From: an uncultured Acidobacteriota bacterium
GTDB taxonomy: Bacteria > Acidobacteriota > UBA6911
Assembly (NCBI GenBank): GCA_963809485.1
Contig: CAWEJX010000012.1
Coordinates: 96,001 to 160,000, forward strand
Length of the DNA: 64,000 nt
Reading direction: 5' to 3'
Positions 1 through 44,987 of the stretch are shown piece after piece. The notes under the pieces were generated by a model. That model saw only the letters and a program-made list of their open reading frames with translations, did no database searches and was not told the origin of the DNA. How positions within the stretch are numbered: the first letter of the stretch is position 1; every line of letters begins with the position of its first letter. Both the position numbers and the translations under genes were made by a program.

Positions 1-178
1 ATTTTACGTCGGCAGGGTTAACTACGCCAAGGGAGCCAGATTGAAAAAATACACTTAATGCTGGTCCGGTTGACTTCGCACCCTATCACATAATGCTCTA
101 CGCCACGTCGGAAAAAGATTTTTACCAGGCGACCCCAAAATGCATGCGATGCTTCCAGCGTAACCGTAGACCTCTGGT

Positions 179-487
179 TTAACCACTATCGGCTAAAGCC
201 GGTAGAATCCTTTGCGACTGAAAGTCGCTGGCGGCGAAAGCCACTTGAGGCCCGAAGGGCCGGCATTGAATTGGCCCGGCCGTCAGGCCGGGAAGAGGAT
301 CGAGGCTAACAAGAGCGCCAAAGGCGCGGCACCTTCATTCCCGTTTGTGCCGGCCCTTCGGGCCTCATTGCCCAACAAGTTCAATCCCGAGCTGACGCTC
401 CGGCCTATTTCTTGCCGGCCCTTCGGGCCTGAAAATCAAGCTGAAAGATTACCGCCTGAAAGGCGATGGGCTTGAACCGGGCGATTG
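179..487. mobile_element. Palindromic non-coding element with IS200/IS605-like ends and internal REP-like repeats
   Basis: Hairpins CTATCGGCT-AA-AGCCGGTAG (186-205), GCGACT-GAA-AGTCGC (214-228) and CGCCT-GAA-AGGCG (453-465). Perfect 20-bp inverted repeat 246-265/348-367, with a third copy at 413-430. No transposase. Confidence 0.5.
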
Positions 488-633
488 AGCTAAAGGCGCA
501 GGTTAAAGTATTGGGCTGCTTCTGCACATTTAACACAGATATATACAGCGTATACATACGGTGATTATCTTATTTCAGGCAACGTATACTCTGCACGGAA
601 ACAGGGACAGGATAACGGCGAGGGGGGCAGAAA

Positions 634-3136
634 ATGGCGATTGAGTCTGGCAGCAAGTATGCCGAAGAAGTTGGATCATGGCAGGAAATTCTTATACCTG
701 TCCGTTCCGCGCGGGTTGAAAAGGCCAGGGAAAGAGTGCGCAAAGAAGCCGAAATCTGCCTGGAACGCATTCGAGCCGAACTCAAGGCCTATAACCAGTA
801 TAAAGACCAGCCTTCCATCATTCAGCGAGCCCGCTTCCTTGAGACTTTCCTGAGGGAGAAAAGTGTGCTTATCCAGGAGGATGAACTCATTATAGGTACC
901 GTGGGAAGTAAGCCTCGCTCCGCTTTTATAACAACGGCGAATATCGCCTCTATCGAAGAAGAGCTGGATGATCCGGTAAAGGACTTCTCAATACGGTCCT
1001 ATGACAGGATTTTAGTTCATCCTGAGGAGAGAAAAGAACTGAGAGAAGAGATTATTCCGGCCGTTAAAGGCAGTGCCATCTCTCTTTTCGAGTATAATTT
1101 TAAAAATGTCGACCGGGATATTCTCGAACATGCCGCTCCCGGAGTCTCATCCTGTCCGCATATACCTATTATCGGTGACGTATCGATGGCAAGAGAAGGC
1201 GGCCACATGTTCCTCAACTTTGAAAAGGCCCTTTGTAAAGGGCTTAGAGGAATCAAGGAAGAGGTCAGGGAGAAGTTGGCGGAACTTGACCAGCCATATC
1301 GCGGATTTGACCGAAAACAGAGACGAGAATTTTACGAATCCGTGCTCATCACCCTGAATGCCGCTACGGAATATTTCCAGAAATATGCCGGACGCGCGCG
1401 TGAGATGGCAGCAAAAGAAACAGATCCGAAACGAAGGACGGAACTGGAACATATTGCCGAGACATGCGACCGGGTGCCGGAAAATCCCGCGCGGGACTGG
1501 TGGGAAGCTCTACAGTCCATCTGGTTCCTGTTCACTCTGAGTTGGATGGAACACGCCACTTTTGCAGTACATTTTCTCGGCCGAATCGACCAGATTTTGT
1601 ATCCCTTCTACAAGAAAACCGTAGAAGATGAGAAGAAAATGACCCGGGAAGAAGCTCTGGAGCTTCTGGAATGCTTCCTGGTGAAATTCAACGAACCAGC
1701 CTGGGCACTCAACTACGAGTGGTCGCAATGGGCAACCGGCCAGGGACTTTCCCAGACAATGGTGATCGGCGGACAGACCAGAGAGGGCAAAGATGCCTGC
1801 AACGAGGTTACCATGCTTGTACTGGAAGCTATGGAACAATTGCGTCTGAATCAGCCGGAATTCGCCATGAGGATATGGGAAGGGACACCCGATAAATATC
1901 TTAAAAAGGCGACCGAGCTTATCCGCCTCGGGCTCGGCTATCCGAAATTCATCGGTGACCGGAAAGGAATTCAGATGGCAGCCAAGGCCTATCCGGACCT
2001 GACAATCGAAGACTGGCGCCAGTTCGCTGTTGCCGGATGTTCGGAGATAGGTCTGCCTTATATCACTATGGATAACGGTTATGAAGCAATCGCACTGGCC
2101 TCCAAGTGGATAGAGCTGGTCTTGAGTAACGGTAAATGCGCGGTATGCGGCAAGCAGATCGGACTGGAAACCGGCGATCCCAGGAAATTTGAATCTATGG
2201 AACAGGTGAAAGAGGCCTACCGCAAACAGGTATTCTACTGGGGCGAGTATATGGCAAAGGCCGAGAAGATTTTCAAGGAAAACCAGAGCGAATGGTATCC
2301 TGCTCCATTCTGCTCGGCCTTTACCGAAGGACCCCTTGACAGAGGGCGAGATATTACCAGGGGCGGCGCCTGGTACACCGTGTACGGTTTCCTGCTGGCC
2401 AGCATCGCCGACGCAGCGGATTCTCTGGGAGTAATAGACAAGCTTATCTACCGTGATAAAAAGGTTACCTGGGACCAGCTGATTGAAGCGGTGAATGCCA
2501 ACTGGGAAGGTTATGAAAACATAAGGCAGCTCTGCGTCAACGGTGTCCCAAAATACGGGAATGACGACGATTACGCCGACGGCTGGGCAATCTGGGTAGC
2601 CGATGTCTGGGCCGACCTTATAGACTGGCTCAATACCAGAAAAGACCTTATGCCGAGGTGGGGAGGCAGATATCTGGCAGGTGGCCTGGTGGCAATAGCC
2701 AGTACCCAGTTCGGAGAATCGATCGGCGCTACACCAAACGGGCGTAAACATCCCATGCCGGTGGCTGATACCTGCTCTCCTGTACAGGGTGTCGACCGGA
2801 ACGGTCCCAGCGCCGTGGTCAAGTCATTCAGTAAATTGCCTACTCACCGGTGGGCGCTCGGCGGTCTGATAAACATCCGGTTAAATCCGAATCTGTTTAC
2901 AACCGATGCTGACCTTGAGAGATTTGCGGCTTTTATTCAGAGCATGTGAAGAGTTAGGTCTGTACCATGTTCAGTTCAATATAATTTCTGCGGAACTGCT
3001 GCGTAATGCAATGAAAGAACCGGAAAAATACCGGGACCTGCTGGTCCGGGTAGCCAGCTATGTCGCCTACTTTGTTGAGTTGAGTCCGAACCAGCAGATG
3101 GACATCATCAACAGAACCGAGCAACAGAGCTGGTAA
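634..3136 (+). CDS. Glycyl-radical-enzyme fold protein (PFL2/glycerol dehydratase-like) with Ser at the radical Gly position; +1 frameshift near 2937
   Basis: ORF 634-2949 has GRE motifs (RIDQILYPFY, IGGQ, Cys loop AGCSE with TGT at 2038, PKYGNDD, GATPNGR). The C-terminus HVQFNI...DLLVRVASY continues in another frame to 3136. RBS GAGGGGG lies upstream. Confidence 0.9.
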
Positions 3137-3169
3137 CAGACCAAAAGCGCACCGGGGAGGGGTATCGGC

Positions 3170-4099
3170 TTGACGAATAAATCGGCTGACCCTGCAAAGA
3201 AACGACATGTCCTCAGCATTACCCGGATGACAGTTCATAACGGACCCGGGATACGAACCTTAATACTTCTGAAAGGCTGTCCTTTACGCTGCATCTGGTG
3301 TTCCACACCCGAATCCCGGAAAGAGACCCCGGAAATCGCTTTCTACCCGCATCAGTGTATCCTCTGTAACGACTGTATTCCGGTCTGTCCGAAGAACGCG
3401 ATAGCAACCGGTGATAGAGCGGTGGTCATAGACAGGGAGTTATGTGATAACTGCGGGCGGTGCGTCGATGTATGCAACACGGAAGCCCTGAGGCTCCTGG
3501 GACAGCAATATACAGCAGACGAACTCGTCCACGAGGTGATGAAGGACGAAATTGTCCATAAACATTCCGGCGGCGGAGCAACAGTCTCGGGAGGAGAGCC
3601 TCTGCTTGAACCTGAGTTTGCCGCCGAATTGCTCCGCTCTCTTAAGGAGAACGGAATTAATACCGGAGCGGATACCTGCGGTTTTGTCCCCCGAAAAAAT
3701 ATCGAGGCCGTCCTCCCCTATGTCGATTTTTTTCTCTGGGATATCAAACACATGGATGATGATACCCACCGCAAACTGACCGGAGTATCCAACCGTCTCA
3801 TCCTGGACAATCTTTGTTTTGCTTCGGGCAATAATATCCCGGTTTATTTGAAAGTACCCGTGATACCCGGCTGCAATGATTCCGAGGAAAACCTCAGGGC
3901 TGTCTGTAATTTCGCCGGAGACCTGCACTCGCTGGTTGAGATAAACCTCCTGCCGTTGCACCATCTGGGCAAGGCCAGATATGCTGCTCTGGGCCTCGAT
4001 TACCCCATAGACGGGATTCCTTTCATTAAGGATGATGTTCTCACGGAGATGAAACGCCTGGCAGAATCATACGGATTAAAATGCAGCATAATCGGGTAA
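3170..4099 (+). CDS. GRE-activating radical SAM enzyme with 2x[4Fe-4S] ferredoxin insert
   Basis: HNGPGIRT, CPLRCIWC (CX3CX2C), CILCNDCIPVC and CDNCGRCVDVC, GGATVSGGEP, DIKHMD; adjacent to the GRE. Confidence 0.93.
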   Translation: MTNKSADPAKKRHVLSITRMTVHNGPGIRTLILLKGCPLRCIWCSTPESRKETPEIAFYPHQCILCNDCIPVCPKNAIATGDRAVVIDRELCDNCGRCVDVCNTEALRLLGQQYTADELVHEVMKDEIVHKHSGGGATVSGGEPLLEPEFAAELLRSLKENGINTGADTCGFVPRKNIEAVLPYVDFFLWDIKHMDDDTHRKLTGVSNRLILDNLCFASGNNIPVYLKVPVIPGCNDSEENLRAVCNFAGDLHSLVEINLLPLHHLGKARYAALGLDYPIDGIPFIKDDVLTEMKRLAESYGLKCSIIG

Positions 4100-4135
4100 C
4101 GGAGAAAAAAGACGCAGAATCCCAATATCGACGAA

Positions 4136-4330
4136 TTGCTCTCCGGCTCAATAGATATGCATCTTCATTCCGGTCCGGACGAGATTCCGGGGCGCGCGGA
4201 TGCCGGTGAAACCGCCGAACAGGCTGCCGACGTCGGAATGAAAGCCATCGTGCTGAAAACTACAGTTATCCCACCACCCCGGTGGCTATCATCGCCCGGG
4301 AGATGGCGCCTGAAGTTGAGGTTTTCGACC
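4136..4330 (+). pseudogene. Truncated amidohydrolase-fold (DUF6282-like) N-terminal fragment
   Basis: GSIDMHLHSGPD...AADVGMKAIVLK, then a frameshift to (N)YSYPTT...APEVEVF; ends before the next gene. Confidence 0.55.
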
Positions 4331-4376
4331 CTTACAACTGTTCAAAAGGAATAAAGTGGAAGAAAGGAGAGAAATC

Positions 4377-6218
4377 ATGCGACGTTTTAGAATAGCATTA
4401 ATCTGTTTATGTGCTCTGGGCATTGTGTTAGCGGTATACGTGGTGACCAAAGGAGGTATAGAGGATGATACCTTAACAAGCAAGAAAGTAACAGTGCTGA
4501 ACCCGAGAGGTATAGCTCCTCCAATCGAAATGATACCCATGGCACCCAGGCTTGACACCCTGGAGGGCAAAACAATATACCTCGCAGGTATAAATTTCCA
4601 ACCGTTGCATCAAGGCATGATAGAAATCCACAGAATACTCGCCGAAAAATATCCCAAAACCACCTTTATACTCAAGGTCAAAGAGGGCTCCTACTTGGTT
4701 AATGACCAGAAGCTATGGGATGAAATCAAAGAAAAGGGCGACGGAGCGATAGTCGGTATCGGGCAGCTAGACACCAATGCACCGGCGACTGTCATCTTCT
4801 CCTCAATACTGGAAAAAATGGGGATACCCACGGCACCTGTTGTCACCGCAGGGTTTCCGAATCTCACAAGAAGCTTCGCGTACAAGAAGGGGATGCCTGA
4901 ACTGCGATTGACTTTTATTCCCCATCCTTTCTCAGCCAGACCAGTCGAAGTACAACGGGAATATATAAAGGGTAAAGATCCCATAAGCGGCAAACCAATT
5001 ATTGAACAAATCGTTGAGGCCCTCACCAAACCGCTAACCGATAAAGAACGAAAGACAGGTACCATAGAAAGACCCATACGAAGAATCCTGGGGCCTGATA
5101 CTCCCGAGAACCTGGCCAAGCTCTTTCTTGAAAACGGATGGACGGACGGTCTTCCGATAATTCTTCCTACGCAAGCAAGGGTAGCCGCGATGCTCAAGGG
5201 AACAAGCCACAAGCCTGATGAAGTAATCGGCATGATGCAGCCCACTCCTCCTAACGAGGCATGGGAAGGCTCTTTAAGGCAACTTGGCGGTAGTCAGGCG
5301 AAAGGAGGAGCTGAATTACCGGTAACGATGCAGCCTTCGCCTCCCTACGAGTCCTGGCAATATACTGTGGAGCATGTCGCTATCAATGCCGTGATGGCGG
5401 GAGCCAGTAAAGAGCATTTTCCTGTTATACTATCTATAGCCTCCACAGGAGTAACCTCATTATTCAGTTCCTGTTCCTCTTTCGCCAGGATGGTTGTCGC
5501 CAACGGGCCAATCCGCAAAGAGATAAAGATGAATTCCGGACTGGCCGCGTTGGGCCCCTTCAATCATGCCAATTCCGTCATCGGAAGGGCGTGGACGCTG
5601 ATATCCAAGAATCTGGGAGGCTCGATACCGGGTGAAACATATCTGGGTGATCTGGGTAATGCCCTCAACTACAACAATTTATGTTTTGCGGAGAATGAAG
5701 AGGCACTGCCCGAAGGATGGAGTCCCCTGCATGTGCAGAAAGGCTTCAAACCTGAAGAAAGCGTTGTCAGTATCTTGAGCGGGTGGAGTTTGATTAATTA
5801 TGGTGCTTTTAAGCCGTACCCGATTCACGAGGTCGCCAGGAAATTGTTTATAAGCTTTGAAACCAGCGGAGCCAGTATGGGTCGCCCTACTCTGTTATTA
5901 AGTCCCATAACGGCAACAGATCTAAAGAATGAAGGCTTCGAGAGTAAGGAGAAGTTGAGCCAGTGGCTCAAGGAAAATACCTATATGACCCTCTGGAATT
6001 ACTGGGCGATGAGGCCTAAGGACTTAGCATCCGCTAAAGCAGGAATCGAGCCATTCGCCTCAATGCTAAAACAGTCCCCGGGGGCATACTCACCGCAAAA
6101 ATCTCTCGCGCCCAACTCACAGGTTGAGATATTGGTAGTCGGTGGGGGGACCGAGGTATCCTGGCAGGCCGGAGACTTCGGGTACATGGTATCCGCATCG
6201 GTGGATAAGTGGAGGTAG
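4377..6218 (+). CDS. UGSC-family protein paralog 1, no Sec/Cys (GQLDTN at the UxxC site), N-terminal signal/TM
   Basis: VLNP, MAPRLDTLEGK, LEKMGIP, WTDGLP, AINAVMAG, ANSVIGRA, ENEE, VVGG; closest in this window to 38786-40504; RBS AAGGAG. Confidence 0.85.
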   Translation: MRRFRIALICLCALGIVLAVYVVTKGGIEDDTLTSKKVTVLNPRGIAPPIEMIPMAPRLDTLEGKTIYLAGINFQPLHQGMIEIHRILAEKYPKTTFILKVKEGSYLVNDQKLWDEIKEKGDGAIVGIGQLDTNAPATVIFSSILEKMGIPTAPVVTAGFPNLTRSFAYKKGMPELRLTFIPHPFSARPVEVQREYIKGKDPISGKPIIEQIVEALTKPLTDKERKTGTIERPIRRILGPDTPENLAKLFLENGWTDGLPIILPTQARVAAMLKGTSHKPDEVIGMMQPTPPNEAWEGSLRQLGGSQAKGGAELPVTMQPSPPYESWQYTVEHVAINAVMAGASKEHFPVILSIASTGVTSLFSSCSSFARMVVANGPIRKEIKMNSGLAALGPFNHANSVIGRAWTLISKNLGGSIPGETYLGDLGNALNYNNLCFAENEEALPEGWSPLHVQKGFKPEESVVSILSGWSLINYGAFKPYPIHEVARKLFISFETSGASMGRPTLLLSPITATDLKNEGFESKEKLSQWLKENTYMTLWNYWAMRPKDLASAKAGIEPFASMLKQSPGAYSPQKSLAPNSQVEILVVGGGTEVSWQAGDFGYMVSASVDKWR

Positions 6219-6267
6219 AACAGCCGGGAGAGATTGATATGGCAGGGATAGGACTGTCCTCTTCCCG

Positions 6268-6470
6268 CTAGCTGGCCAAAAAGCTCGCGAGGTCGAGAGC
6301 ACGGAAAATTTGGTTTTGCTGGCTATCCATGCGAGTAAGAGTACGCTCGGAGCGCGGGCGGCCACCGATATTGAGCTTTTCGGCGGGATGAGCAGGATAA
6401 TAATTTGTGATTTCCTTGATCCTTTTGAGCTGCTCCTTCATGCGCGACTGCGGCAATTCTGCATGCTCGG
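6268..6470 (-). pseudogene. C-terminal remnant of IS1634/IS1549-like transposase
   Basis: YP...GGRPRSERTLTRMDSQQNQIFRALDL resembles IS1634-family C-termini as recalled; no start or catalytic domain. Confidence 0.4.
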
Positions 6471-6645
6471 GTCTGCGAGGGGGGGCGGTCGTTGATAGGT
6501 TAGGGTGTTCCTATTCGGGCACACAGCCGGAAACGTCCGATGCAGACAAGACGACATCTAAAGACCCTATTGTGGCTTCCCCTACTCGGCGGGTCAAGAT
6601 AGTAGCGTGTATTAGTTACAAAGTCGAACACGAAGAAAGGAGAAA

Positions 6646-7887
6646 GTGATGTCTGAAGAAAAGAAAATAACGGCAATAACCAATGGCAGATTAATCGATG
6701 GTACAGGCGCCGACCCTGTTAATAACGCGACGGTCATTATCGAGGGATCGACAATCAAGAAAGTGGAAAAGCGTCAAGAAATTCCCAAGGGTGCCGCAGT
6801 CCTGGATGTTTCCGGGAAGACAGTGATGCCGGGGCTGATAAACGCGCATTTGCACCTGGCGGGAGGCGCTTCCGGGACTGGACCGTCTCCGTACCGCCCC
6901 AGAGAAGTCGCAATGTTCAAAGCGGCAGATGATGCCAAGATTATGCTGGCATCGGGATTCACGACTGTGAAGGACTGCGCGGGGAGAAACGCCCCGTTCC
7001 TGAAGCAGGCAGTCAAAGAGGGCGTCCTGACAGGGCTTCCTCGCATCGTTGCTGCCTGTTGTGTATTGAGCCAGACAGGTGGTCCGCAGGATCAAGCATC
7101 CAAAGGCGGGAAATCTCGTGATGCACGGGAAAATGATGAGGCAGAGTTTCTCATTTGTGACGGCGTGGACGAGTGTGTTAAGGCTTCTCGCTACTCTCTG
7201 CGCTTAGGTGCGGACTTCATTAAGGTCTTTGCCAGTCTGAATTATTTCCATCCGAATCACGATTCTCCAAGCGGTGTCACATTCAGTATGGAGGAGATGG
7301 AGGCTTTTGTGAAGACAGCCGCCCAGGTTGGCAAGTTCGTCACCGTTCATTCTCAGAATCGCCATAGTTCAAAGCTTGCCATACTTGCCGGGGTAAAGAC
7401 CATCGACCACGCCAGCGGGTCGGATGACGAAGTCGTGTCATTGGGAAAGACCCACGGTTCTATTTTCGTTTCGACTCTCGCATATCTCAGGGTGATGCTT
7501 GATGGAAAACTAGCCTCTCAAGCATCAGCAATGATACAAAAGGAGTGGGATGTTTCCGTTGAGGCGTACAGGAAAATGCACGATGCGGGAGTTGTCCTGG
7601 CGGCCGGCACCGATAGCTTCGGAGACACGAGAGAAGGTGCGATGGAAATTGAATTGTTGACGAAATATTGCAGTTTCACCCCGATGGAAGCAATTGTGGC
7701 TGCGACCAAACGCGGAGCCGAAGCCTGTTTTATGGGTGATAAGACGGGGACGATAGAGACAGGTAAGTACGCCGATATTATCGTTGTCGACGGCGACCCG
7801 CTGTCGAACATCAAGATATTGCAGGATGTCAATAAGATTAAAATAGTGATGTTGGAAGGCGACATCTGTGTCGATCGCGGGCTTTAA
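6646..7887 (+). CDS. Metal-dependent amidohydrolase (Xaa-Pro dipeptidase/ochratoxinase-like)
   Basis: GKTVMPGLINAHLH, DFIKV, VTVH, TIDH, AGTD, GTIETGKYADIIVVDGDP. Confidence 0.9.
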   Translation: MMSEEKKITAITNGRLIDGTGADPVNNATVIIEGSTIKKVEKRQEIPKGAAVLDVSGKTVMPGLINAHLHLAGGASGTGPSPYRPREVAMFKAADDAKIMLASGFTTVKDCAGRNAPFLKQAVKEGVLTGLPRIVAACCVLSQTGGPQDQASKGGKSRDARENDEAEFLICDGVDECVKASRYSLRLGADFIKVFASLNYFHPNHDSPSGVTFSMEEMEAFVKTAAQVGKFVTVHSQNRHSSKLAILAGVKTIDHASGSDDEVVSLGKTHGSIFVSTLAYLRVMLDGKLASQASAMIQKEWDVSVEAYRKMHDAGVVLAAGTDSFGDTREGAMEIELLTKYCSFTPMEAIVAATKRGAEACFMGDKTGTIETGKYADIIVVDGDPLSNIKILQDVNKIKIVMLEGDICVDRGL

Positions 7888-8103
7888 GCCCTAAAAATGA
7901 GATAAATCGACCTCATAGAGGATTAGCCTGTCGAGAGCATCGAGGTCGGGCGATGGGCTCCCGAGAGCATGCCTGATTTTTGAAGATCTGAGATGTGTCG
8001 ACATCAGAAAAGCTGGATCTTGGGAGGATGATAAAGATACTCCGGGAAGGTGGAAGACTGGGCACTGTATAAAAAATGTATCCATCCATGGGAGGAACCG
8101 CAG

Positions 8104-9179
8104 ATGAAACATTTAAACAGTATGCAAAAACTATTGATATTCATTAGCTATATCCTAATGGTCTGCGGGAGCGCCGCTATCGCGGATGATCGTCCAGACT
8201 CCGGGGGTATTACATATCTTCAGGGCCCCAGGAATGCCGAGGATATCCAACCGCTTGGTGATTCTCAGTGGTTGGTTACCTCCGGCTTGAACGGCCAGGC
8301 TTCAAAAACGGATGATAACGGCCATATCTACTTGGTCAATCGCAAAGAGAAGACATTCGAAGAATTCTTTCCGGGGGTAACGCCACAATTTAATCACGAT
8401 AAGGTAATGTTCAATGCCTGCCCAGGCCCGATAAACCCTAATAAATTTTCCGCCCATGGACTGGCCGTGCGGAAACGATCGTCCGGGCTTTATCGCCTGT
8501 ACGTCGTCAATCATGGAGAAAGAGAAGCCATAGAAGTATTTAATATTGACGCTAAAAGGCAAAAAGCCAGCGATTAGTTGGGCGGGTTGTGTATTATTAC
8601 CCAAAGAGATCATGGCGAACAGTGTCGCTATTCTTTCAGATGGTGGATTTTTAGACGACCAAGTATTTCGATCCGACTGTGCCGAATTCCATCAAAGAGC
8701 TCGTCCGGGGCAAGATCACCGGTGGTGTTTATGAATGGCATCCCGGCGGAACCGTTAAAGCCCTACACGGTACGGAGCTATCCGGCGCAAACGGGATCGC
8801 GGTATCTCCGGATGGTGAATGGGTCTATGTGACGGCCTTTGGTACACGCGAGATAGCCCGTTTTAACCGTACAAAAAGTCCTATTACAATGGAGAAAGTT
8901 AAGATCGACATCATGCCTGATAACATCCGTTGGGGTGATGATGGCATGCTTTATATCGCGGGTAATAATTATGTACCGCCTGAGCAATGCCCAAAACCAC
9001 CCTGTCGGACTGGATGGTCCGTATTTAGTATCCACCCTGAAACCTTGGAATTGAAACGAGTAACCGGTGTTGATCAAACGGCAACTTTGCAGAATGCCAC
9101 CACGGCACTTGCAGTGGGTAATGAGATATGGGTGGGAACCTACTCGGGTGATAGGATTGGTTATTTACCGAAGCCTTAA
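8104..9179 (+). CDS. Secreted paraoxonase/SMP-30-like beta-propeller, split by two frameshifts (~8560, ~8655)
   Basis: Signal peptide; NAEDI, AHGL, NHGEREAIEVF, ANSVA, GANGI, PDNI motifs are spread over ORFs 8050-8577, 8546-8734 and 8679-9179. Confidence 0.75.
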
Positions 9180-9206
9180 AGGCAGTTCAATATAATGGGA
9201 GGTCTT

Positions 9207-9545
9207 ATGAGTATCAACAGATCAAGGAGGAGCTTTCTAAAGGCTGCGGGTGGGGGATTATTATTGCCTGCCGCCGGATGTGCATCAACAACGGGCCCCA
9301 AAGCCGCATCTCAACCGCCTGCAAACGTTGTCAATCACACTTTCGGCAAAGCAGGCCCGAAGGTTTGCGGAGTAGCCTGCGGGCTCGGCTTCGTGCCTCT
9401 GACGGAAGAGGCCTCCCGTGCCTTGGAAATGGGGATTAATTACTGCGATGCATCAGGAGATTACGGCGACAGCGAAAGGATCTTATCAGACATGACAAAA
9501 GGCCGGAATCGGGTGTACGCCCCGTATTACATGATATATTCGTGA
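9207..9545 (+). pseudogene. Truncated Tat-signal aldo/keto reductase
   Basis: RSRRSFLKAAG; FGKAGPKV..G.G; RALEMGINYCDASGDYGDSERIL; only about 110 aa. Confidence 0.65.
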
Positions 9546-9793
9546 AACCACAGCATATTTCATTACCTGGAAAAGTGCGGAGGCATGGAAGGCCGGCGCC
9601 TATTTTCCGGATAAAGCCAAGCAAGTGTGACCTGGAGCCGGCATTATTCGTCCTTCTGGAATGAGTCCATGGCATTATGCGAGATGTTTCTCCCCGAATG
9701 GGGAGGAGAGTCCCCAGATAGAATATAAGTACTATCAAGCCGCCACGGGGAAAAACGGTTCTCAATCTTCAGACTGCTTGGAAGGAGGAAGAA

Positions 9794-11617
9794 ATGGCAA
9801 AACTTAATGCGGTATGGTTGAGATCAGTAATAGGTGTGTTCTTTGTTTGTTCTATAACCATAGTGCATGCAAATACTTTTGCCGCTGAGCCTGAAGCGAA
9901 GGCAGAAGGTTTTTCATTTGAGGTGCTTAATCCGGAGGCCGAGTGGATTATGCCATCCAAAATCTCACTGATTTCTCCACGGCTTAAGGACCTGTCCCAG
10001 AAGAAAATCGGATTGCTCTACGCCGGCAAATCGGGTGGCGAGTTTTTTCTGGATGCATTAGAGGTGCTTCTGAAGAAGAAATATCCTTCGGCCACGATCT
10101 CAAGATATACCCGATGGGTGGATAATGCAGAGGAAAGGATATTAAGGGAAGAAGATGCCTTTGTTTATGCGGTGGGAGATGCCGGCCAGGCAGCCTGGGA
10201 CAGCATAACCTGGACAGTAAAACTGGAAAAACTCGGTAAACCCGGTGTTGCTGTTTTTGGTGACCGCGTCTTATATAATGCAAAAGTGGCCGCTTCCCAT
10301 CTTGGCATGCCGTCGGTTCGTATGGTGCCCCTACCCAGTATGGAATTTTACCCGAACAGGGCAAGCGCAGCGACCATGATGCCCTGTGCCGAAATGGTTC
10401 TGGACGATATAATAAATGCGTTAACCCGCCCGATACAGCCTTCAGAGAAGAATGCCGGTTTGATACCGAAAAAGGCGACACCTGAGTTTGTAAGAATTAC
10501 AGGCGACAGCCTGGAATCCGCCTATGATAAATTCTACCAGCTATTCATGGATAATGACTGGGGCGATGGACTCCCACTGGTCCCTCCCACGCGCTATAAC
10601 GTCGAACAGATGTTAAAGGCAACCAGCCTTTCACCTGATACAAAACTGGGTACAATACAAGTACATGACGGGAGTTCCGACCTAGTGCATGTCACTGTGG
10701 GTAAAGTTGCTGTAAATGCTGTGATGGCCGGCGCTAAACCGGAATATTTCCCGGTTATTATCGCTGCCATGGAGGGGATATCCGATAGGGGATTTTCCAG
10801 TCACGTTTTTTCTTCTGACGCCTCCTTTAACCTTTTAATAGCCGTGTCCGGCCCCATTGCGAAAAAAATCAATATGCACTCCGGAACAGGTTTCCTGGGG
10901 CACGGGTGGCGGGCCAATAATACCATCGGACGCGCTGTAAGACTGTGCATGAACAATATAGGCCATATAAGACCGGGAAAGCTTGATACGGCATTAACCG
11001 GCAGGGCGTCATCCCATACTTTTTATGTGCTGGCTGAAAATGATGTATTAAGTCCCTGGGCTCCATTTCACACTGTGCGAGGCTACCGGGCGGAAGACAG
11101 TTATGTTACAGTGTCCGGCATAGGTCTGGGCGGCGATTTCACTATTTACGGCGGCGGAACAGGAGGCGCCTGGAAAATTGATGATGTTCTGAAAAGCATT
11201 ATTAATAGAATTGCTCCTAACCGCAGTATGTTTGCAGGAACTGGCGTCAGGCCTCTCAACTATATTTTCATACTGAGTCCCGATACGGCACAGGAACTGA
11301 AGAAACGGGGCTATACCAGGCAGAGCCTTCAGGACTACATTATAGACAAAACATCCGTACCCTATGAGCAGTTGAGCAAGGCTGAGATCGAGGGGCTCAA
11401 AAGGAGGCTTTCGGAAAAGTCCGATGCCTGGGGAGGAACCGGGAATATTCCTGAAGACCGCAAACCCGTGTTCCGGGAAAACCTTAAACCCGGAGGCAAA
11501 ATACCTGCTGTCGTTTCACCTGACAATCTTAACATTTTTGTATCGGGTGATGTGTCAGGCTATAATCTTGGAGCGGTTTATCTGCTCGGGGGCCACTCGA
11601 TTAAGCCTGTTCGATAA
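9794..11617 (+). CDS. UGSC-family protein paralog 2, Ala at both redox positions (GDAGQA), signal peptide
   Basis: VLNP, PRLKDL, LEKLGKPGV, WGDGLPLVPPT, AVNAVMAG, RANNTIGRA; AGQA codons at 10181-10192. Confidence 0.87.
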   Translation: MAKLNAVWLRSVIGVFFVCSITIVHANTFAAEPEAKAEGFSFEVLNPEAEWIMPSKISLISPRLKDLSQKKIGLLYAGKSGGEFFLDALEVLLKKKYPSATISRYTRWVDNAEERILREEDAFVYAVGDAGQAAWDSITWTVKLEKLGKPGVAVFGDRVLYNAKVAASHLGMPSVRMVPLPSMEFYPNRASAATMMPCAEMVLDDIINALTRPIQPSEKNAGLIPKKATPEFVRITGDSLESAYDKFYQLFMDNDWGDGLPLVPPTRYNVEQMLKATSLSPDTKLGTIQVHDGSSDLVHVTVGKVAVNAVMAGAKPEYFPVIIAAMEGISDRGFSSHVFSSDASFNLLIAVSGPIAKKINMHSGTGFLGHGWRANNTIGRAVRLCMNNIGHIRPGKLDTALTGRASSHTFYVLAENDVLSPWAPFHTVRGYRAEDSYVTVSGIGLGGDFTIYGGGTGGAWKIDDVLKSIINRIAPNRSMFAGTGVRPLNYIFILSPDTAQELKKRGYTRQSLQDYIIDKTSVPYEQLSKAEIEGLKRRLSEKSDAWGGTGNIPEDRKPVFRENLKPGGKIPAVVSPDNLNIFVSGDVSGYNLGAVYLLGGHSIKPVR

Positions 11618-11668
11618 GGAAGACGGATTATAGAATCAGGTCATAGCATCTCCTCAGTATCCTCCGTA

Positions 11669-11800
11669 TCAAGTCGTTGTAGCTCCGCGTATGACCTTGT
11701 GAATGTATGGCCCTGTCACTTCCTCAAAATTGGCGGTTGAGCCGCAGGGAGTCTGAAAAACAATCACTCCGTCCGCGCCTATGCCGGGCGGATAGGCGGA
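11669..11800 (-). pseudogene. Possible C-terminal remnant of another UGSC-family gene
   Basis: ...IVFQTPCGST...HKVIRGATTT*YG resembles the paralog ends (VWESPTG..TKLIRGAALTKAGR). Confidence 0.3.
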
Positions 11801-12062: not shown

Positions 12063-14502
12063 ATGACGGCAGCAAATGAAAGTAAAAGGGAAGAGTCAAG
12101 GGACAACTGGCTCTGGCTCTGGAGACCCCCTGAAGGCGGCGATATCGGCCGCCGCGGCCTGCGGCCCAGAGAGGCTCCCGAGAAAGTAACGGGCAGAGCC
12201 GTTTATACCAATGACGTTTATCTTCCGGGAATGCTGTATGTGAAGGTTTACCGTTCTCCGTATGCCCACGCCAGGATCCGGAAGATGGATACCAGCAAAG
12301 CCGAGGCTCTTCCCGGCGTCTGGGCCGTAATCCGATATGATGATCCGGATATCGATTTAAGCGATCCCTATAAACCCGTATTGGGTTTCATGTGGTTTTG
12401 GCATCGGAATTCCATTCTCCCGGATACCGCCGATTATCAGGGCGTCCGAGTAGGAGCGCTGGTAGTTGCCGAAAGCGAGGAAATCTGCGATCAGGCTTTG
12501 AAATTGATCGGGGAAGGCATCGAGTGGGAGCAATTGCCTTTCATCCTGGACCCGGAAAAGGCGATCCAACCCGATGCGCCTCTTTTGCATCCGGAAATAA
12601 ATCCCAAAAACAATATCTGGAAAGATGCAGTGATTCTCAACCAGGGTGACGTGGAGAAGGGATTTGCCTCATCCGACCATGTCATCGAGTTCAGCGAGAT
12701 CAAGAAGGAGGATGATGTCTGGGCCGGCGTGGAGCCCGGATGTATGGTTGTCCAATGGGTTGGCGACAATCTGGAATTCTGGTATCACGGGCAAAGAATC
12801 GGGGTAGATGTAAATTTCATATCAGCTCCCGTGTTCAAAAACGATAAAAAGCAGCCGAAAAAAGTGAAAGCGCACACGCCTTTTAACGGCGCCACCTTCG
12901 GCGGAAATGCCATGGGTCTTGCCTGCTCATCTGGCCAGGTATGCGGCGATAGCAGCCAGGAAGACCATGCGTCCGGTCAAGGTTGTGGATGATTACGCCA
13001 TGAGCTGGGAAGGCAACAGTTTTGAGACCGGAATTGCCCATTACAAGGTGGGCTTTAATAATGATGGAACCATTGTCGCCATCAAGATCGAAATCAACCA
13101 GAAAAACGGCCTTCCGATAACATCCAAGTTTATCGATACCTTGAAGACGCCGAATGTTTATGTGCATGCGATACATTCTTACTGGAGCAGACCCCATGAG
13201 TCCTGCTGGAAGGATGGCGCGGCCAATTGCACCCTTGTCAACCTGATAATCAATAAGGTAGCTGCCTGTTTGAACATGGACCCGATAAAGGTGCAACTGC
13301 TCAACGATGGCGCCAGATGGGCATGATATGGCCTGGCTGGACGAACATGTCAAGAAGCCTTACGGAATGCCCCTCAGGGACAGCCTGAAGGAGGTTGTTG
13401 AAGCCGGCAAGAAAGCTTTCGATTGGGACCGGAAGTGGCATCCGCCGGGCACGCGCAGGCTCCCCAATGGCCGGATGCATGGTGTCGGTTTTTACGCGGT
13501 AGCCTGTTGGCATACCGGCGCCAGAAAGGGCGGCGTCCCAGGCATATCTATGGCGAGAGATGGAACGGCTACCATCTTTTACCGCCGCCCCGATTGCGGC
13601 CAGTCTGCCGCTACCACCTATTGCCAGATTGCGGCTGATGAGATCGGGCTGCGCTATGACGACGTTAAAATTGAGTTCATAGACTACTTCTACTTTGATG
13701 CTGTTCCTCCCGCAGGTTCCATGGGTTCCAGCCTCAATACTTTCGGCCTTGTGGTCAATGCCCGAAAAATGAAGAGAGCTTCTCCTGGAATATGTTGTGA
13801 ACCCTCCCATTGGGGCAATACGCGCCTATGGCAATGCAGTTCCACCGGTACTCATCCCTTTCCAGGGCAAAAAGGTTGAGGAACTGGATATCAGGGACGG
13901 CGTCATCTTTGAGAAAGCCCATCCGGAAAACAAGCTGCCGGTAAGAAGAGTCACCTCATTGCTGCCGCGCGGATTGGAGGCAGCGGCAGAAGGAGGATCC
14001 TTTCTTCGTCGGCGACAAAGCTCCTGAGCTTCCCGAAGTTAAGGAGAAATATACATTGGCCCGGCAATGTGTTTTCGTCGAAGTCGAGGTTGACACCGAA
14101 ACCGGACAGGTTGAGGTTATCAAGCTGGTCCATCCTTATGATGTAGGCCAGTCGCTGAATCCCGATGTGAATGACCAGCAACTCTACGGCGGTGCCTATC
14201 CGGGCGTAGGTGTCTCCGCCACTGAAGCCATCTATTATGATCCGCATACCGGAGTCAGGCTGAATGATAATCTGCTTGGTTATCCTGTTCTGACCATACT
14301 GGATGTCGGCGAGATTGAAGCTCCCATTGTAGAAACGCATCTGGGCTGGAGCGCCTATGGACTTTGCGGCTGCAGCGAAGCCGGTAAGGCGGCCACAGCC
14401 GCAGCGATACTGGTCCCCGCCGTTTATAACGCCATCGGAAAGTGGATTGAGGAAACCCCGGTTACGCCGGAAAGAGTTCTCAGAGCGCTGGGAAAAGCAT
14501 AG
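12063..14502 (+). pseudogene. Xanthine dehydrogenase-family Mo-binding subunit, multiple frameshifts (~12920, ~13315, ~13780-13800, ~14005)
   Basis: KVTGRAVYTND, RSPYAHARI, VEVEVDTETGQV, AVYNAIG, PVTPERVL; the fragments align colinearly with paralog 15176-17591. Confidence 0.85.
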
Positions 14503-15175: not shown

Positions 15176-17591
15176 ATGGCAGAGGAATCAATGGAAAAGC
15201 GGCCCTGGCTATGGAGGCCCCCCGAAGGCGGCTATATCGGCCGCAGAGGCTTGCGTCCCAAGGAAGCCCCTGAAAAGGTCTCGGGCAAAGCAGTGTATAC
15301 AAGTGATGTTTACCTCCCGGGAATGCTGTATTTAAAAGCATTACGTTCCCCCTATGCCCACGCCAGGATCAAGAAGATGGATAGCGGCAAAGCGGAATCC
15401 CTCCCGGGCGTCTGGGCTGTGATCCGATACGACGATCCGGATATCGACTTCTCTGATCCCTATGAGCCCGTGATAGGGCGCTCATGGTTTTGGTATCGGA
15501 ACATTCTCCCGGATATTGCCGACTTTGAAGGTGTAAGGCTGGGAGCGATGGTGGTTGCCGAATCTGAGGAGATCTGCGATCAGGCTTTAAAGCTGATTGG
15601 GCGAAGGCATTGAGTGGGAACAATTGCCATTCATTCTGGATCCGGAGGAAGCCGTGAAATCTGGCGCTCCTCTCCTTCACCCGGAAAGAAATCCCAATAG
15701 CAATATCTTCGATGATGTGGTGACCTACAATATTGGTGACGTAGAGAAGGGATTTGCCTCATCCGACCATGTCGTCGAGTTCAAGTCGGTCAAAATTGAG
15801 GATGACGTCTGGGCCGGCGTAGAGCCCGGAAGCATCGTGGCGTGGCTGAAAGATGAGGAACTGGAAGTCTGGTACCACGGACAAAGAATTCCTGCGGACG
15901 TGAATTTTGTTGCAGCGCCCGTATTCAAAAACGATAAAAGCCGGCCCAAAAAAGTGAAGGTTCATACGCCCTATAACGGAGCGACCTTCGGCGGCAATGC
16001 AATGGGATTGGTCGCCCAGCTGTGCCGATATGCAGTCATCGCAGCCAGGAAAACAGGGCGGCCGGTCAAGGTAGTGGACGATTATGCCATGAGCTGGGAA
16101 GGCACCAGCTATGAGACCGGAACAAATCGTTTCAAGATAGGTTTTAATAACGACGGCACCATCGTTTCGATCAAAATTGACACCCTCCAGATAGCCGGCC
16201 ATCCTCTGCCCAGCAAATTTGTAGATGCCATCAAAACCCCCAATATCCTGGTTCATGAAGTGCACAGTTATTGGAGCAAAGCCCACGAGTCCTGCTGGAA
16301 AGACGGCGCCTCCAATTGCGTTCTTTCGAACCTGGTAATTAATAAAGTGGCGGCCCATCTGAATATGGACCCGATACAAGTGCAGCTGCTCAACGATGGC
16401 GCTCACGGGCATGATATGGCCTGGCTGAACGAAAATGTCAAGAAGCCCAACGGAATGCCGCTCAGGGACAGCTTGAAGGAAGTTGTCGAGGCGGGCAAGA
16501 AAGCTTTCGATTGGGACCATAAGTGGCATCCTCCGGGCACACGCAGGCTCCCCAATGGCAGGATGCACGGGGTCGGTTTTTATGCCGTGGGCTGCTGGCA
16601 CACCGGCGCCAGGAAGGGAGGCGTTCCTGGCATATCCCTGGCGAGGGATGGTACGGCCACCATCTACTACCGGCGCACGGATTGCGGCCAGTCCGCTCCT
16701 TCTACCTATTGTCAGATTGCGGCTGATGAAATAGGGCTGCGCTATGAAGACGTCAAAATAGAATTCAAGGATTATTTCTATTTTGATGCGGTTCCCCCCA
16801 TGGGTTCCATGGGCTCCAGTCTCAACACCTATGCTCTGGTGATGAATGCCAGGAGAATGAAGCAGCGCCTTCTGGAATATGCTGTCAAATTTCAAATGGG
16901 AGCCACGAACATCAATTACGGCGACAAGGTTCCGGCAACAGTCTCTCCGTTCCTGGGCAAAAATATTGAAGACCTGGATATCAAAGACGGCGTCATTTTT
17001 GAGAAAGCCCATCCGGAAAACAGGATGCCGGTCCGAAGAGTCGTCTCTTTTCGGCCTCGAGGCCTGGAATCGAATGCGGAAGTTGGAGAGTTCTTTGTCG
17101 GTGAAACTGCAGATGAACCTCCCATGGTGAAGGAACCCTTCAGTATGGGCCGGCAGTGCGTTTTCGTTGAAGTCGAGGTTGACACCGAAACCGGACAGGT
17201 TGAAGTGACCCGACTGGTTCATCCTTACGACGTAGGCCAGTCGCTGAATCCCGATGTGAATGACCAGCAACTCCTTGGCGGGGCCTATTCCGGCGTAGGC
17301 GTCTCCGCCACGGAAGCCATCTACTATGATCCGCATACCGGGGTCAAGCTGAACGACAACCTGCTCGGCTACCCGATGCTGACCATACTGGATATGGGCC
17401 CCATTGAGGCTCCCATCGTGGAAACACACGTGGGATGGAGCGCTTATGGACTTTACGGCTGCAGCGAAGCCGGCAAGGCGGCTACAGCCGCAGCCATACT
17501 GGTCCCGGCCGTTTATAACGCGATCGGCAAGTGGATTGAGGAAACCCCGGTTACGCCGGAAAGAGTCCTTAGAGCGTTGGGAAAAGCATAA
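15176..17591 (+). CDS. XDH-family Mo-binding subunit, one frameshift (~15600)
   Basis: ORFs 15176-15613 and 15597-17591 join into one full-length subunit. Confidence 0.88.
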
Positions 17592-23140: not shown

Positions 23141-23395
23141 TCGCTCCTCAGGATTACGATCTCAAATCACCTGAGGTAAAAGAGGCGGTGCGTCTCTTTA
23201 TTCTCAAGGGCGACACCTATCTGGAGTGTGAGATTTTGCTTAGACAGAATTGAAGCTGCCCGCAGGCTTGCAGGAGAATGCCGTATCTTCCAAAGTTGGA
23301 GAGTGAAGCGCATCCGGAGTTGCTGCATTCTGCGGGACGCCCGTTTTCAACATGGAATTGCTCAGAAATCATCAGGAGAACGAGGAGGCATGGCT

Positions 23396-25177
23396 ATGAA
23401 GAAGGGAATAAAGAGGTCACTATTGGGAGCATGCCTGATAGCAAGCATGTTTGGGATCAGATCAGGTTTTGCTCAGGTGACATTGGAGGTCATAAGTCCG
23501 CGGGCGGAAATTCCGCCTCCGCCGTCAATTCTTCACCCCGCACCTCGGCTTGCGGATCTGGCGGGCAAAAGAATTGGATTGATTGCCAATAACAAACCCG
23601 GTGCCGAGCTCTTTTTAACGAAGATCGAAGAATTGCTCAAGCAGAAGGTCCCTGATGCAAACATCGTGCGCCTTAAGATGATGAAGGTTTCGGCTGAACA
23701 AGCCAAGAAGCTGGCATCTCAAATCGACACCTTCATCCACAGCACAGGGGACTGAGGGGGATGTACGTGGCTGGTTAGCCGCGATACTATCGAACTGGAA
23801 AAGCTTGGCAAACCCGGCGTAGGCGTTGTCACTTCTACTTTTCTCAGTGATGCTCTTTCGGCGGCTCAAGACTCCGCTATGCCTACGGTGCGTCTTGTAG
23901 CGGTGCCTGCCAAAAATTACTATACGGCGCGGACTCAGGAACCGTTGATGAAGGACGTTGCGGCCGCGATTATTGATAAAGTCCTCGATGCATTAAAGCG
24001 TCCTTTGACCCCGGAAGAAACAGGTGCGGCTGAAGCCTCGAAGAAGGCGAAGAAGGACGAGGAAATACTAAAGTTCACCGGAGCGACCTATAACGAAGCA
24101 GCTGAGGCGCTTTACAAAGGATTTCTCGAGCGCCACTGGGCCGATGGATTGCCCATAATGCCTCCCACAAAAGAGGCTGTCGATTGGATGCTTACAGGAA
24201 CGAACCGCTCTCCGGAGGAAGTAATCGGCATTGTCGCCACAAAAGGCGGGAAGGCAACAATAAGAAAGATTGCCGCGAACGCTGTAATGGCGGGGGCAAG
24301 GCCGGAGTATTTGCCGGTGATCATTGCGGCTATGGAGGCCATCACAGGAGAAGGATTAAGCGCCCTGCATCTGCAGGCCTCCGCGGGATGCGTAAGCCCG
24401 CTCATTTTGGTCAACGGGCCGATCGCTCAAGAATTGGAGATAAATTCCGGGGCCGCCTATATGGGCCATGGATTCCGGGCGAATAACTCCATTGGACGTG
24501 CCGTCAGGCTGAGCATGATCAATTGCGGGCACATGTGGCCGCAACAAAACGATATGTGCTTGCTTGGACGGCAGGATGCGTTTGGGAATACGACTTTTGC
24601 GGAAAATGAGCAAGAGAGCCCATGGAAGCCGTACCACGTTGACTTGGGATTCAAACCGGAAGACAGCACCGTTACGGTAGTGAATTATATGCACCACAAA
24701 CGCGGTCCCGGCGGGCCGGTCGTGCCTGCAACTCCGTATGAGAGCCTGTTTGACCTGGCGAAAACAGTAGAGATCGTAAACACGCCTTTGGGATCGGCAT
24801 CCAATGAGGTCATAATAGCCATCGATCCGACTTTCGCCCACCAACTGTCCACGGTGGGGTTTAGCAAAGAGGATATTAAATGGTGGATCTTTTTGAATGC
24901 GCGCACTCCGTACTCGGAACTAAGAAAAGAAGAGAAAGAAAACCTTCGAAAGTCCATCGAAAGCGGGAAAACGCCCGCCTATCTTTGGACCTGGGGCGAA
25001 CAAGGGCAAGAGAAAAAAATTGAAAACATAGCGGATGTACCCTGCCTCCAGAAACCGGACCGGATTCACATTGCCGTGGTGGGTGGTTCGCCGGGATATT
25101 CGTATGTCTGGGAGTCACCGACGGGGCAGGCCACTAAACTGATACGCGGCGCCGCGCTCACTAAAGCAGGGCGTTAG
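23396..25177 (+). CDS. UGSC-family selenoprotein (593 aa), predicted Sec at TGA 23753-23755, motif GD-U-GG-C
   Basis: ORFs 23228-23755 and 23879-25177 are in frame with an open interval (UGGCTWLVSRDTIELEKLGKPGV); RBS GAGGAGG; signal peptide; SECIS-like hairpin. Confidence 0.88.
23760..23791 (+). promoter_or_regulatory. Putative bacterial SECIS
   Basis: CGUGGCU-GGUU-AGCCGCG stem plus lower GAU/GUA pairs; loop 17 nt after UGA. Confidence 0.7.
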
Positions 25178-43720: not shown

Positions 43721-44987
43721 TCAATATCTCCCGTATTCTTTTGTGAATTCAATCATGGCCTTCAAGTTCTCCGGCTTTACCTCATCCGTGGAACTCCTTG
43801 GCCCCAGAATGTATCCGCCGCCCTTGCCCACCGTGTCAATGAGGTTCTTGCAGTAGTCTTTGACTTCCTGAACCGACCCCATCTGCAGAAGTGAAGACGG
43901 CACATTCCCTTCTATGCACACATGATCTTTAAGAATCTCTTTCGCCTTGACTATGTCGGTGCGGTCGAACCGGGCCAGTATCTTGCCCTTGGGAAACTCG
44001 AGCAGATACTCCAAACGCGACGTGAATGTCCCCTCAAAAAAAATGCAGGGCGTTGCTCCACGATCGACGAGAGTCATGACAAGCTTCTTGAATGTCGGCC
44101 AGTAAAAAGTCTGGAACTGCTTCATCGACATGAAGTCGTCGGACCCCCTCGTATTGGTCATGAAAATCCTGATGTTGCCGAATTCATTAGGCTTCGGTAG
44201 CGGTCTTGCCAGCGTTTTCTCCAGCAGGAATTCACACATCGCGATGAGTTTGTGCGGCTTTCGATACATGTCCAGCATCGTGCCCTTCATGCCGCGAATA
44301 CTGTTGGAGATCACATCAAATGGCGGCATTGCCGCCCCCTGAAACAACTGGGGGATGCCGTAGTCAAGCAACATCTGGTTGAACTCGTCGATTTTGTGCT
44401 GCCACCTCCTGAATTCCCGCCCTGCCTTCTGGAGGTTTTCGATCATGGATTCGAACTTGGGTTCGGTAAAGATCATCGCCAGCGTTTGCGCGGCCATAGG
44501 CTCGATCCAACTCATGCTGTTCGAGCTCCGGAAGCATCGACAGCCCTTCCAGGCTTTCATACGTCCTCGGCAGATGATGCCGTATCATGAAATCGGCCGG
44601 CTTGTCTAAAAAGCAGTCGTGTTCGTCATCCCGCAAGCTTTCAATTTCAATGGCCTGGTGCCCATGGTTGGGAGCAACGCCGTAGCCGGGCCATTTCCGA
44701 AACCTTGGATTCAGGTATTCCATTGCGGTTCCGGGAGAGAAAGGCTGGGTGAATGACATGTCCGGCTGATAGTCGCCAAGTGTTTTTCGGTATGCCGCCA
44801 GCCAGGCGTCAGGATCATAATACGCAGCCGAGCATGGTATGCCGGCATAGCGGGCGACGAAGTAGCCAAGCGAACAGATTACCGGGACCCTGTCCGTAGG
44901 TCTGAGACGGATGGCGTTCGTGACCCGCAGTTCTCTTTCACGGCGCAATTCCTCGGAAGTTTTTCCATGTTCAAGTGTTGTTGTCAT
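43721..44987 (-). CDS. UroD/MtaA-like family protein, one frameshift (~44525)
   Basis: TDRVP, AAYYDP, PPFD, IRGMKG.MLDMYRKP, FMS..QF..FYWP, GGGYIL; paralog of 20263. Confidence 0.82.

Follow-up and report, generated by a model that had tools for sequence, protein, structure and literature searches.

We have analyzed a 64,000-nucleotide stretch of DNA from an uncultured Acidobacteriota bacterium (lineage UBA6911; GenBank assembly GCA_963809485.1, contig CAWEJX010000012.1, positions 96,001 to 160,000 of the forward strand), which is referred to throughout as the window. The subject of this study is a gene pair near its start that encodes a PFL-like enzyme related to the glycyl radical enzymes (GREs) and an adjoining radical S-adenosylmethionine (SAM) activase (Table 1). 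The radical enzyme gene extends over positions 634-3139 of the forward strand, and a single additional base at 2939 interrupts its reading frame. Its first piece is an open reading frame (ORF) of 771 aa in frame 1 (634..2949), which terminates in ERFAAFIQSM and is 96% identical to an unbroken protein of 833 aa (P0002). The remainder lies in a frame 2 ORF (2906..3136) that reads ACEELGLYHVQFNIISAELLRNAMKEPEKYRDLLVRVASYVAYFVELSPNQQMDIINRTEQQSW up to its stop codon; from about 2942 to 3136 this continuation begins with ACEELGLYHVQFNIIS and closes with DLLVRVASYVAYFVELSPNQQMDIINRTEQQSW. The PFL-like barrel domain is matched by Pfam profile PF02901 over residues 27-664 (E 1.9e-158), and the Gly_radical domain is divided by the break, the first piece matching profile positions 2-62 and the second matching 56-106.

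The GRE fingerprint is given in a 2026 review as RVxG[FWY]x6-8[FL]x4Qx2[IV]x2R, the glycine being the residue that bears the radical (PMC13450708). In the window the corresponding segment reads RVASYVAYFVELSPNQQMDIINR, which keeps every element of the fingerprint save that serine takes the place of the glycine. The HMMER alignment sets this serine against the catalytic glycine of solved enzymes, such as PflD and IslA ('vriagysayf'). The cysteine loop, AVAGCSEI, with AGCSE at 2032-2046, provides the conserved cysteine of the GRE superfamily, here within a CXE motif (C469-S-E471) of the kind described for GRE 1,2-eliminases and isomerases (PMC13450708). Residues G468, C469, and E471 are invariant across 22 family members, as is the whole radical fingerprint in the family members compared. 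The best solved relative of the enzyme is choline TMA-lyase (E 5.3e-127), followed by other eliminases and isomerases. The adjoining gene, as expected for the GRE superfamily, encodes an activase, which has the cluster motif CPLRCIWC, a PF04055 match, and PFL-AE (3c8f) as its best solved relative (E 8.3e-41). The radical SAM core, the CX3CX2C motif, and the G-x-G-x-R loop are common to this protein, to PFL-AE (PDB 3C8F/3CB8), and to the GRE activases with two ferredoxin clusters, and a ferredoxin-like insert is likewise found in eliminase activases. An initial annotation of the locus, made from its letters, had reported the loop RVASY with an AGC serine codon, an intact cysteine in AGCSE, and the motifs HNGPGIR and WCSTPES in the activase. 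Each of these is recovered when the window is re-read, the last two from 3170..4099.

Table 1. Features at and around the radical enzyme locus, in window coordinates.
Feature	Position	Strand	Description
Site of the lost second DHDPS-family gene	60..489	.	Upstream of the radical enzyme gene; remnant at 92-177 (86 bp); blastn against genome G001
Radical enzyme, N-terminal part	634..2937	+	768 codons, frame 1; PFL-like barrel and first half of the radical domain
Cysteine loop, C-S-E	2038..2046	+	Cys469 (thiyl-radical residue) 2038-2040; Glu471 2044-2046; CXE motif
Frameshift site	2938..2941	+	CAGA against the Arg codon CGA in relatives; extra A at 2939
Frame 1 stop as assembled	2947-2949	+	TGA; N-terminal piece extends to here
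Radical enzyme, C-terminal part	2942..3139	+	65 codons in frame 2 plus stop; fingerprint RVASYx6Lx4Qx2Ix2R
Fingerprint codons	R 3047-3049, V 3050-3052, A 3053-3055, S 3056-3058, Y 3059-3061	+	Direct reading
Serine in place of the radical glycine	3056-3058	+	AGC; reading and HMMER alignment
Putative activating enzyme of the radical enzyme	3170..4099	+	309 aa, radical SAM, intact; CX3CX2C and two-cluster ferredoxin insert
Activase N24	3239..3241	+	In HNGPGIR; Asp in ordinary activases (Asp16 in PFL-AE)
Activase T46	3305..3307	+	In CPLRCIWCSTPES; Asn in ordinary activases (Asn38 in PFL-AE)
Activase R270	3977..3979	+	Lys in ordinary activases; equivalent to PFL-AE Lys208 by offset of the HMMER alignment
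DUF6282-type gene remnant	4136..4351	+	PF19799 profile positions 1-40 of 196 only; downstream of the activase, before the following gene
UGSC-family protein	4356..6218	+	620 aa; recurrent neighbour of the radical enzyme; QLDTN in place of U/CxxC

A family with serine at the radical position

When the 771-aa piece is used as the query in a homologue search, the 120 best proteins (53-100% identity) are nearly all 825-834 aa in length and unbroken. Pattern matching finds RVAS[YF] in 113 of these, as RVASY in 77 and RVASF in 36. Four of the seven proteins missed by the pattern were read, and they comprise the truncated piece from the window itself, two proteins with RAGSY, and one with RVASS; the other three were left unread. 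We also surveyed the best 80 species-representative genome loci among the matches listed. Four of these, at 54-58% identity, belong to the serine group (one Deltaproteobacteria and three Dehalococcoidia metagenome-assembled genomes) and have the loops RVASY, RVASY, RVAST, and RVASF. One further locus encodes a threonine enzyme (RVSTW), and the other loops read carry glycine, in proteins that are at most 38% identical to the window enzyme. From 80 metagenome loci (54-95% identity) we obtained 71 serine-type loops (VASY 43, VASF 21, AGSY 4, VASS 2, and VAST 1), together with a threonine-type loop, VATY, that belongs to a neighbouring enzyme, these numbers being counts of pattern matches of which some loci give none and two loci give two. 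The serine codon is AGC at 60 and AGT at 23 of 83 sites, and hence AGY at all of them. Every close homologue read has serine at the radical site, and glycine is found in none. Variation in the loop does occur within the clade, as RAGSY (L129, L136-L138, P0037, and P0040), RVASS (L132, L160, and P0045), and RVAST (L013 and L169), so that some members have a glycine one place before the serine and others have no aromatic residue after it.

A profile search against 1.84 billion representatives clustered at 50% identity collapses the serine group to two sequences (1218 and 1148 bits), with the next protein at 717 bits. At the radical site, the best 150 representatives have serine in two, threonine in nine, and alanine in three, the rest having glycine or being misparsed by the pattern; both serine representatives fall in the clade of the window enzyme, and there is no other serine clade among these 150. 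The 11 serine rows of a quick 94-row tree group together as a single clade with a support of 100 and a stem of 0.74.

Aminoacyl radical enzymes (AAREs) in which alanine, serine, or threonine replaces the glycine were described by Fu et al. (JACS 2024; PMC11528403), so that the seryl radical enzyme (SRE) is already a published kind of protein. According to that paper, each AARE class is monophyletic, the serine codons of SREs (AGC/AGT) are one step from those of glycine, and DaSRE of Dethiosulfatibacter aminovorans carries, after activation by its own activase, a C-alpha seryl radical with a four-line electron paramagnetic resonance (EPR) signal. The 2026 review ranks AAREs as a seventh class, with no reaction known for any of them (PMC13450708). 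Judged by sequence criteria the window protein would be a member of the SRE class, having serine, encoded by AGC, at the glycine position and a substitution that is conserved in its homologues, albeit in an ORF that is not complete. It has in common with DaSRE an AGY serine in place of glycine, a catalytic cysteine, an adjoining radical SAM activase, and GRE eliminases as its nearest characterized relatives; it differs from DaSRE in its frameshift. With the GRE eliminases and isomerases (CutC, IslA, glycerol and propanediol dehydratases, HypD, and YbiW/PflD), which are its best solved matches (E 5e-127 to 1e-85), the window enzyme shares the PFL-like barrel, the CXE motif, and the radical-domain fingerprint apart from one residue. 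The radical residue in those enzymes, however, is glycine rather than serine, the nearest genome-encoded glycine enzymes among the matches listed fall within the identity limit given above, and the serine clade is long-stemmed. Fu et al. counted 21 serine enzymes in nr (PMC11528403), whereas the 120 proteins listed here represent no fewer than 113 clusters at 90% identity, to which 80 further metagenome loci are added.

The activase signature and the assignment of the locus

In the HMMER alignment, residues N24 and T46 of the window activase correspond to Asp16 and Asn38 of PFL-AE, which are anchoring residues that form hydrogen bonds with Gly734 (PMC9326890). We scanned all 309 activase positions for residues that distinguish 114 activases of the serine clade from 64 ordinary activases, the latter standing beside glycine enzymes in diverse phyla, with the thresholds that one residue be present in at least 95% of the clade group, that another be present in at least 85% of the ordinary group, and that the overlap not exceed 5%. 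Only positions 24, 46, and 270 separate the two groups. Position 24 is asparagine in 100% of the clade activases and aspartate in 64/64 of the ordinary ones; position 46 is threonine in 100% of the former and asparagine in 64/64 of the latter. The equivalent of PFL-AE Lys208, at position 270, is arginine in a fraction of 0.99 of the clade activases and lysine in 64/64 ordinary activases. Thus, the Asp16/Asn38/Lys208 set of PFL-AE is replaced by Asn/Thr/Arg, the first two residues being fixed.

The asparagine and threonine recur in each of the samples that we compared. They are present in 46 of the 46 activases adjacent to serine enzymes in the metagenome loci (HN/STPE in 44, NN/STPE in one, and HN/STPD in one), in the activases of genome loci L011-L013, and, by pattern matching, in 118 of 120 activase homologues (58-100% identity). 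Of the two exceptions, one is a GPS variant and the other is cut at its N terminus; both still read WCSTPES. All activases read beside the loop variants of the serine clade also retain the two residues. By comparison, the five other activases of the same genome have aspartate in all five cases at the first position, and asparagine in four and serine in one at the second. The recurrence of the serine and of the two activase residues across so large a family is far beyond chance. An activase-like gene of the genome, at C8:118549, reads QDGPGIR...WCHSPES, with serine where asparagine is otherwise fixed; neither a PFL-like nor a YjjI-like partner was found near it, and there is no PF11230 match.

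Fu et al. pointed out that AARE activases require a stereochemistry unlike the proposed pro-S abstraction from glycine, together with recognition of a side chain (PMC11528403), and the altered loop-anchoring residues fit both demands. We read N24, T46, and R270 as a putative adaptation for accepting L-serine and removing its only C-alpha hydrogen. The signature is absent from the main texts of the 2024 paper (PMC11528403), in which 'Asp' and 'Asn' occur 0 times, and of the 2026 review (PMC13450708), in which 'Asp16', 'Asn38', and 'D16' occur 0 times, although the activase alignments in Figure S4 of the former may show the residues.

Taken together, these data make it very probable that the locus encodes an SRE with a dedicated activating enzyme. 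Two alternatives have to be set against this assignment. The serine codon AGC is a single step from GGC, and a G-to-A base error, or a mutation private to this copy, could have given an ordinary GRE the appearance of an SRE. Serine is nevertheless present in every close homologue read, including that of the same-genus genome G001; contigs of relatives from independent sequencing runs list no difference at 3056-3058 (eight rows of the table being unseen); and across the family the partner activase departs from ordinary activases at the corresponding contact residues. Base error and private mutation are therefore excluded by family-wide conservation, and we give them practically no weight. The other possibility is that the entire serine family is a catalytically dead or non-radical offshoot, such as a pseudo-enzyme or a structural protein, that has kept an activase-like neighbour, and the fact that no AARE has a known reaction (PMC13450708) would agree with such a view. 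It is very unlikely, however, given the purifying selection on both genes, the invariance of the cysteine, the glutamate, and the whole fingerprint, the alteration of the activase at precisely those residues that contact its substrate, and the serine radical seen by EPR in one SRE (PMC11528403).

A number of points weigh against our assignment, or limit what can be drawn from it. The radical status of the window protein is predicted from sequence. The clade of the window enzyme would be that of the EPR-tested DaSRE, on the strength of the published monophyly of the SREs in nr and of the nr/NCBI entries that fall within the clade seen here. Moreover, the quick tree, the deep forks of which are weak, does not place the serine clade beside the threonine enzymes, unlike the tree of Fu et al. 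The two activases of threonine enzymes that were read (L034 and L126) keep the aspartate and asparagine, and the changes are thus not general to enzymes that lack the glycine; in the metagenome contig L126, which holds both a serine enzyme and a threonine enzyme (RVATY), the activase of the latter reads VD...CNPE. An activase lies within the flanks of 45 of the 63 loci having at least 1.3 kb of downstream sequence, and the 18 that have none adjacent are mostly of the RVASF type. Finally, the signature represents a single event at the level of the clade, and its link to serine recognition is a correlation rather than proof.

The initial annotation had proposed a serinyl-radical enzyme of no assigned reaction, had referred both to published non-glycyl AAREs and to the contacts of the aspartate and asparagine of PFL-AE with the glycine loop, and had argued that matching changes in the partner speak against a base error. 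These two points agree with PMC11528403 and PMC9326890, respectively, the occurrence of asparagine and threonine across the family strengthens the argument from the partner, and membership of the serine family together with the activase signature supports the proposal itself. It had also called for a search for homologues combining RVASY with an NGPG activase, which yields the large family sharing serine, asparagine, and threonine described here, and it had held that the idea would fail if the closest homologues all had glycine and this copy were under relaxed selection; the homologues have serine, and relaxed selection is not seen.

The interrupted reading frame

At the break, which the initial annotation had placed near 2937, the window reads ATT-C-A-GA-GCA where its relatives have ATT CGA GCA (Ile-Arg-Ala), and homologues read FAAFIRACEELG at this site. 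Among contigs of relatives from four sequencing runs, those of two independent runs, which are about 97% alike, span the site and do not have base 2939; all these contigs come from relatives only, the best run sharing a fraction of 0.34 of the window's words and therefore not representing the window's strain. Genome G001, which has about 90% DNA identity to the window and is syntenic with it over 489-11722, also has no extra base.

We rank a real insertion, by which the gene would have become a pseudogene very recently, at a locus undergoing decay, above an assembly error and regard it as the rather more probable explanation. About 27 kb of essential genes, including three to four aminoacyl-tRNA synthetases, RpoB, RpoC, and two topoisomerase subunits, are without a break, and 224 ORFs of at least 800 aa, a normal number, are found in the 6.04-Mb genome; the breaks cluster in accessory genes. 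Set beside a local break rate of about 0.3 per kb, the unbroken essential genes and normal count of long ORFs make random error unlikely. In addition, a DHDPS-family gene that lies upstream in G001 is reduced in the window to a remnant of 86 bp, a loss beside the radical enzyme gene that base-call error does not explain and that points to real decay. Two genes of the xanthine-dehydrogenase family look like pseudogenes, one (12114-14499) having four frame changes (3,1,2,3,1) and the next (15203-17588) having one, and three intact paralogues of these molybdoenzymes in the window are available for comparison. The gluconolactonase-like (SGL) gene at 8050-9542 has extra A's at 8554 and 8653 and is a single frame of 359 aa in G001. 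The genome has eight PFL-like genes, of which two besides the SRE gene are broken: a second GRE gene on the contig (C12:63346-65761) has one extra base at C12:65271 relative to five genomes of the genus, and a third (C4:228026-230388), with a normal RIGGF loop, is in at least four pieces. A frame of 1471 aa running across two GREs was considered and rejected, since direct reading resolves it into an intact gene of 804 aa and a gene with a single frameshift. Homopolymer slippage was likewise rejected as a cause, because neither 2939 nor C12:65271 lies in a run.

Several observations argue against a real pseudogene. There are 0 private substitutions at family-invariant columns and there is one singleton among 31 close relatives. 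Relative to G001, the SRE gene has a dN/dS of 0.145 ahead of the break and of 0.20 beyond it, similar to the values for its intact neighbours (0.155-0.27, with 0.27 for the activase). The inserted base is outside a homopolymer, and fragments of SRE genes are present on other long contigs, as long-read errors would give. It is accordingly quite possible, if less so than a true lesion, that the gene is intact in the organism, that the extra base is an error of the assembly consensus, and that a working SRE of 833 aa is encoded. The lack of relaxed selection, the intact activase, and the SRE fragments on other contigs speak for this, as do the several breaks elsewhere in the genome that consist of single inserted bases at non-repeat sites, and the make-up of the assembly (6.0 Mb, 21 contigs, 7.3% contamination) is what a long-read metagenome bin of mixed strains would show. 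The unbroken essential genes, the normal number of long ORFs, and the true gene loss adjoining at the same locus speak against it. A third explanation, programmed +1 ribosomal frameshifting that regulates production of the radical domain, might be suggested by the fact that two other GRE genes of the genome are broken towards their C-terminal parts. Relatives at 88-97% DNA identity, however, have a continuous frame without the extra base, no break was noted in the tblastn matches to the 80 metagenome loci, the break sites have no conserved slippery motif in common, and a conserved shifted arrangement was found in none of the relatives compared as independent genomes. We consider programmed frameshifting highly improbable, and retain a recent lesion as the preferred explanation for the break.

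Gene neighbourhood and proposed chemistry

An orthologue of the SRE gene is present in just one, G001, of the 29 other genomes compared within the genus (833 aa, 93% identical, and unbroken), the others having only glycine-type enzymes of at most 37% identity; the gene is thus accessory and patchy in the genus. In G001 the gene order is four CoA-transferases and a MaoC gene, two DHDPS-family genes, the SRE, its activase, a UGSC-family gene, an amidohydrolase, and SGL. Neighbours were counted at the 28 loci whose flanks extend to 10 kb or more, some of these loci being near-duplicates. Family-III CoA-transferases (CoA_transf_3), usually paired, and a MaoC-like double hot-dog hydratase are each found at 17 of the 28 loci, an aldehyde:ferredoxin oxidoreductase (AOR) at 12, a UGSC-family protein of about 600 aa at nine, DHDPS-family aldolase-like genes at six, and family-5 solute-binding proteins at five. 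This combination of CoA_transf_3 pairs, MaoC-like hydratase, AOR, UGSC, and DHDPS is not known to match any eliminase pathway.

Other observations on the window concern these neighbours and their surroundings. Seven UGSC paralogues of about 570-650 aa are present in the 64 kb, at 4356-6218, 9794-11614, 23228-25174 (+), 27464-29137 (-), 38786-40501 (+), 58606-60333 (-), and 60531-62198 (-), five of which contain one in-frame TGA. In two of these interrupted copies, read with TGA as U, the TGA falls at the U of UxxC (GD-U-GGC and GH-U-STC), and the interrupted copies are, from these readings, likely to be selenoproteins. Two copies are uninterrupted, including the one that adjoins the activase, the QLDTN of which contains neither selenocysteine nor cysteine. 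The segment 186-430, which replaces the lost DHDPS gene, contains GC-rich hairpin repeats and gives sub-threshold matches to the Acido-Lenti-1 RNA of Rfam (33 and 30.6 bits against a gathering threshold of 37) at 248-293 (-) and 385-430 (+). Weakly similar copies (68-74%), at C12:57592-57708 and C20:3853-4050, precede two other GRE loci of the genome by a few kb. A URO-D-like frame at 43724-44560 (-) matches only profile positions 141-346 of 346; its N-terminal portion may have been lost or separated from it.

By analogy with the one SRE characterized in the literature, the activase would cleave SAM and take the C-alpha hydrogen of Ser808 to give a stable C-alpha seryl radical. This radical would oxidize Cys469 to a thiyl radical, which would in turn take a hydrogen from the substrate with the assistance of Glu471 of the CXE motif. 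The outcome would most likely be a 1,2-elimination or an isomerization. A small oxygenated acid or alcohol may serve as the substrate, and its product would enter a route through an aldehyde oxidoreductase, a CoA-transferase, and a hydratase. On the basis of the invariant CXE motif, the eliminase and isomerase relatives of solved structure, and the gene neighbourhood, we tentatively infer a radical elimination or isomerization, followed by oxidation of the product (an aldehyde, perhaps, or an acid) and its further conversion as a CoA ester, although this is somewhat less probable than not. A bolder proposal, which we put forward as speculative and rather doubtful, is that N24, T46, and R270 constitute a compact specificity code and that the SRE clade catalyzes an undescribed radical elimination. 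The code would turn the bound loop and so present the one C-alpha hydrogen of L-serine for removal by the 5'-deoxyadenosyl radical, on the face opposite to that of the glycine pro-S hydrogen, and the product of the elimination would pass to the co-located AOR, paired family-III CoA-transferases, and MaoC-like hydratase. If this were true, swapping activase residues 24, 46, and 270 would interconvert glycine and serine activases.

Because it is interrupted, the copy in the window adds little biochemically, and its value lies in the activase signature and the gene neighbourhood of the family to which it belongs. The membership of that family in the metagenome collections that we searched far exceeds the 21 sequences counted in nr. 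How AARE activases meet the new stereochemistry and recognize a side chain was left open by Fu et al. (PMC11528403), and the exact three-residue signature of the serine-specific activases, with two residues at positions where PFL-AE holds the glycine, offers a first lead. The recurrent neighbourhood offers a second, in that it narrows the search for the substrate of these enzymes.

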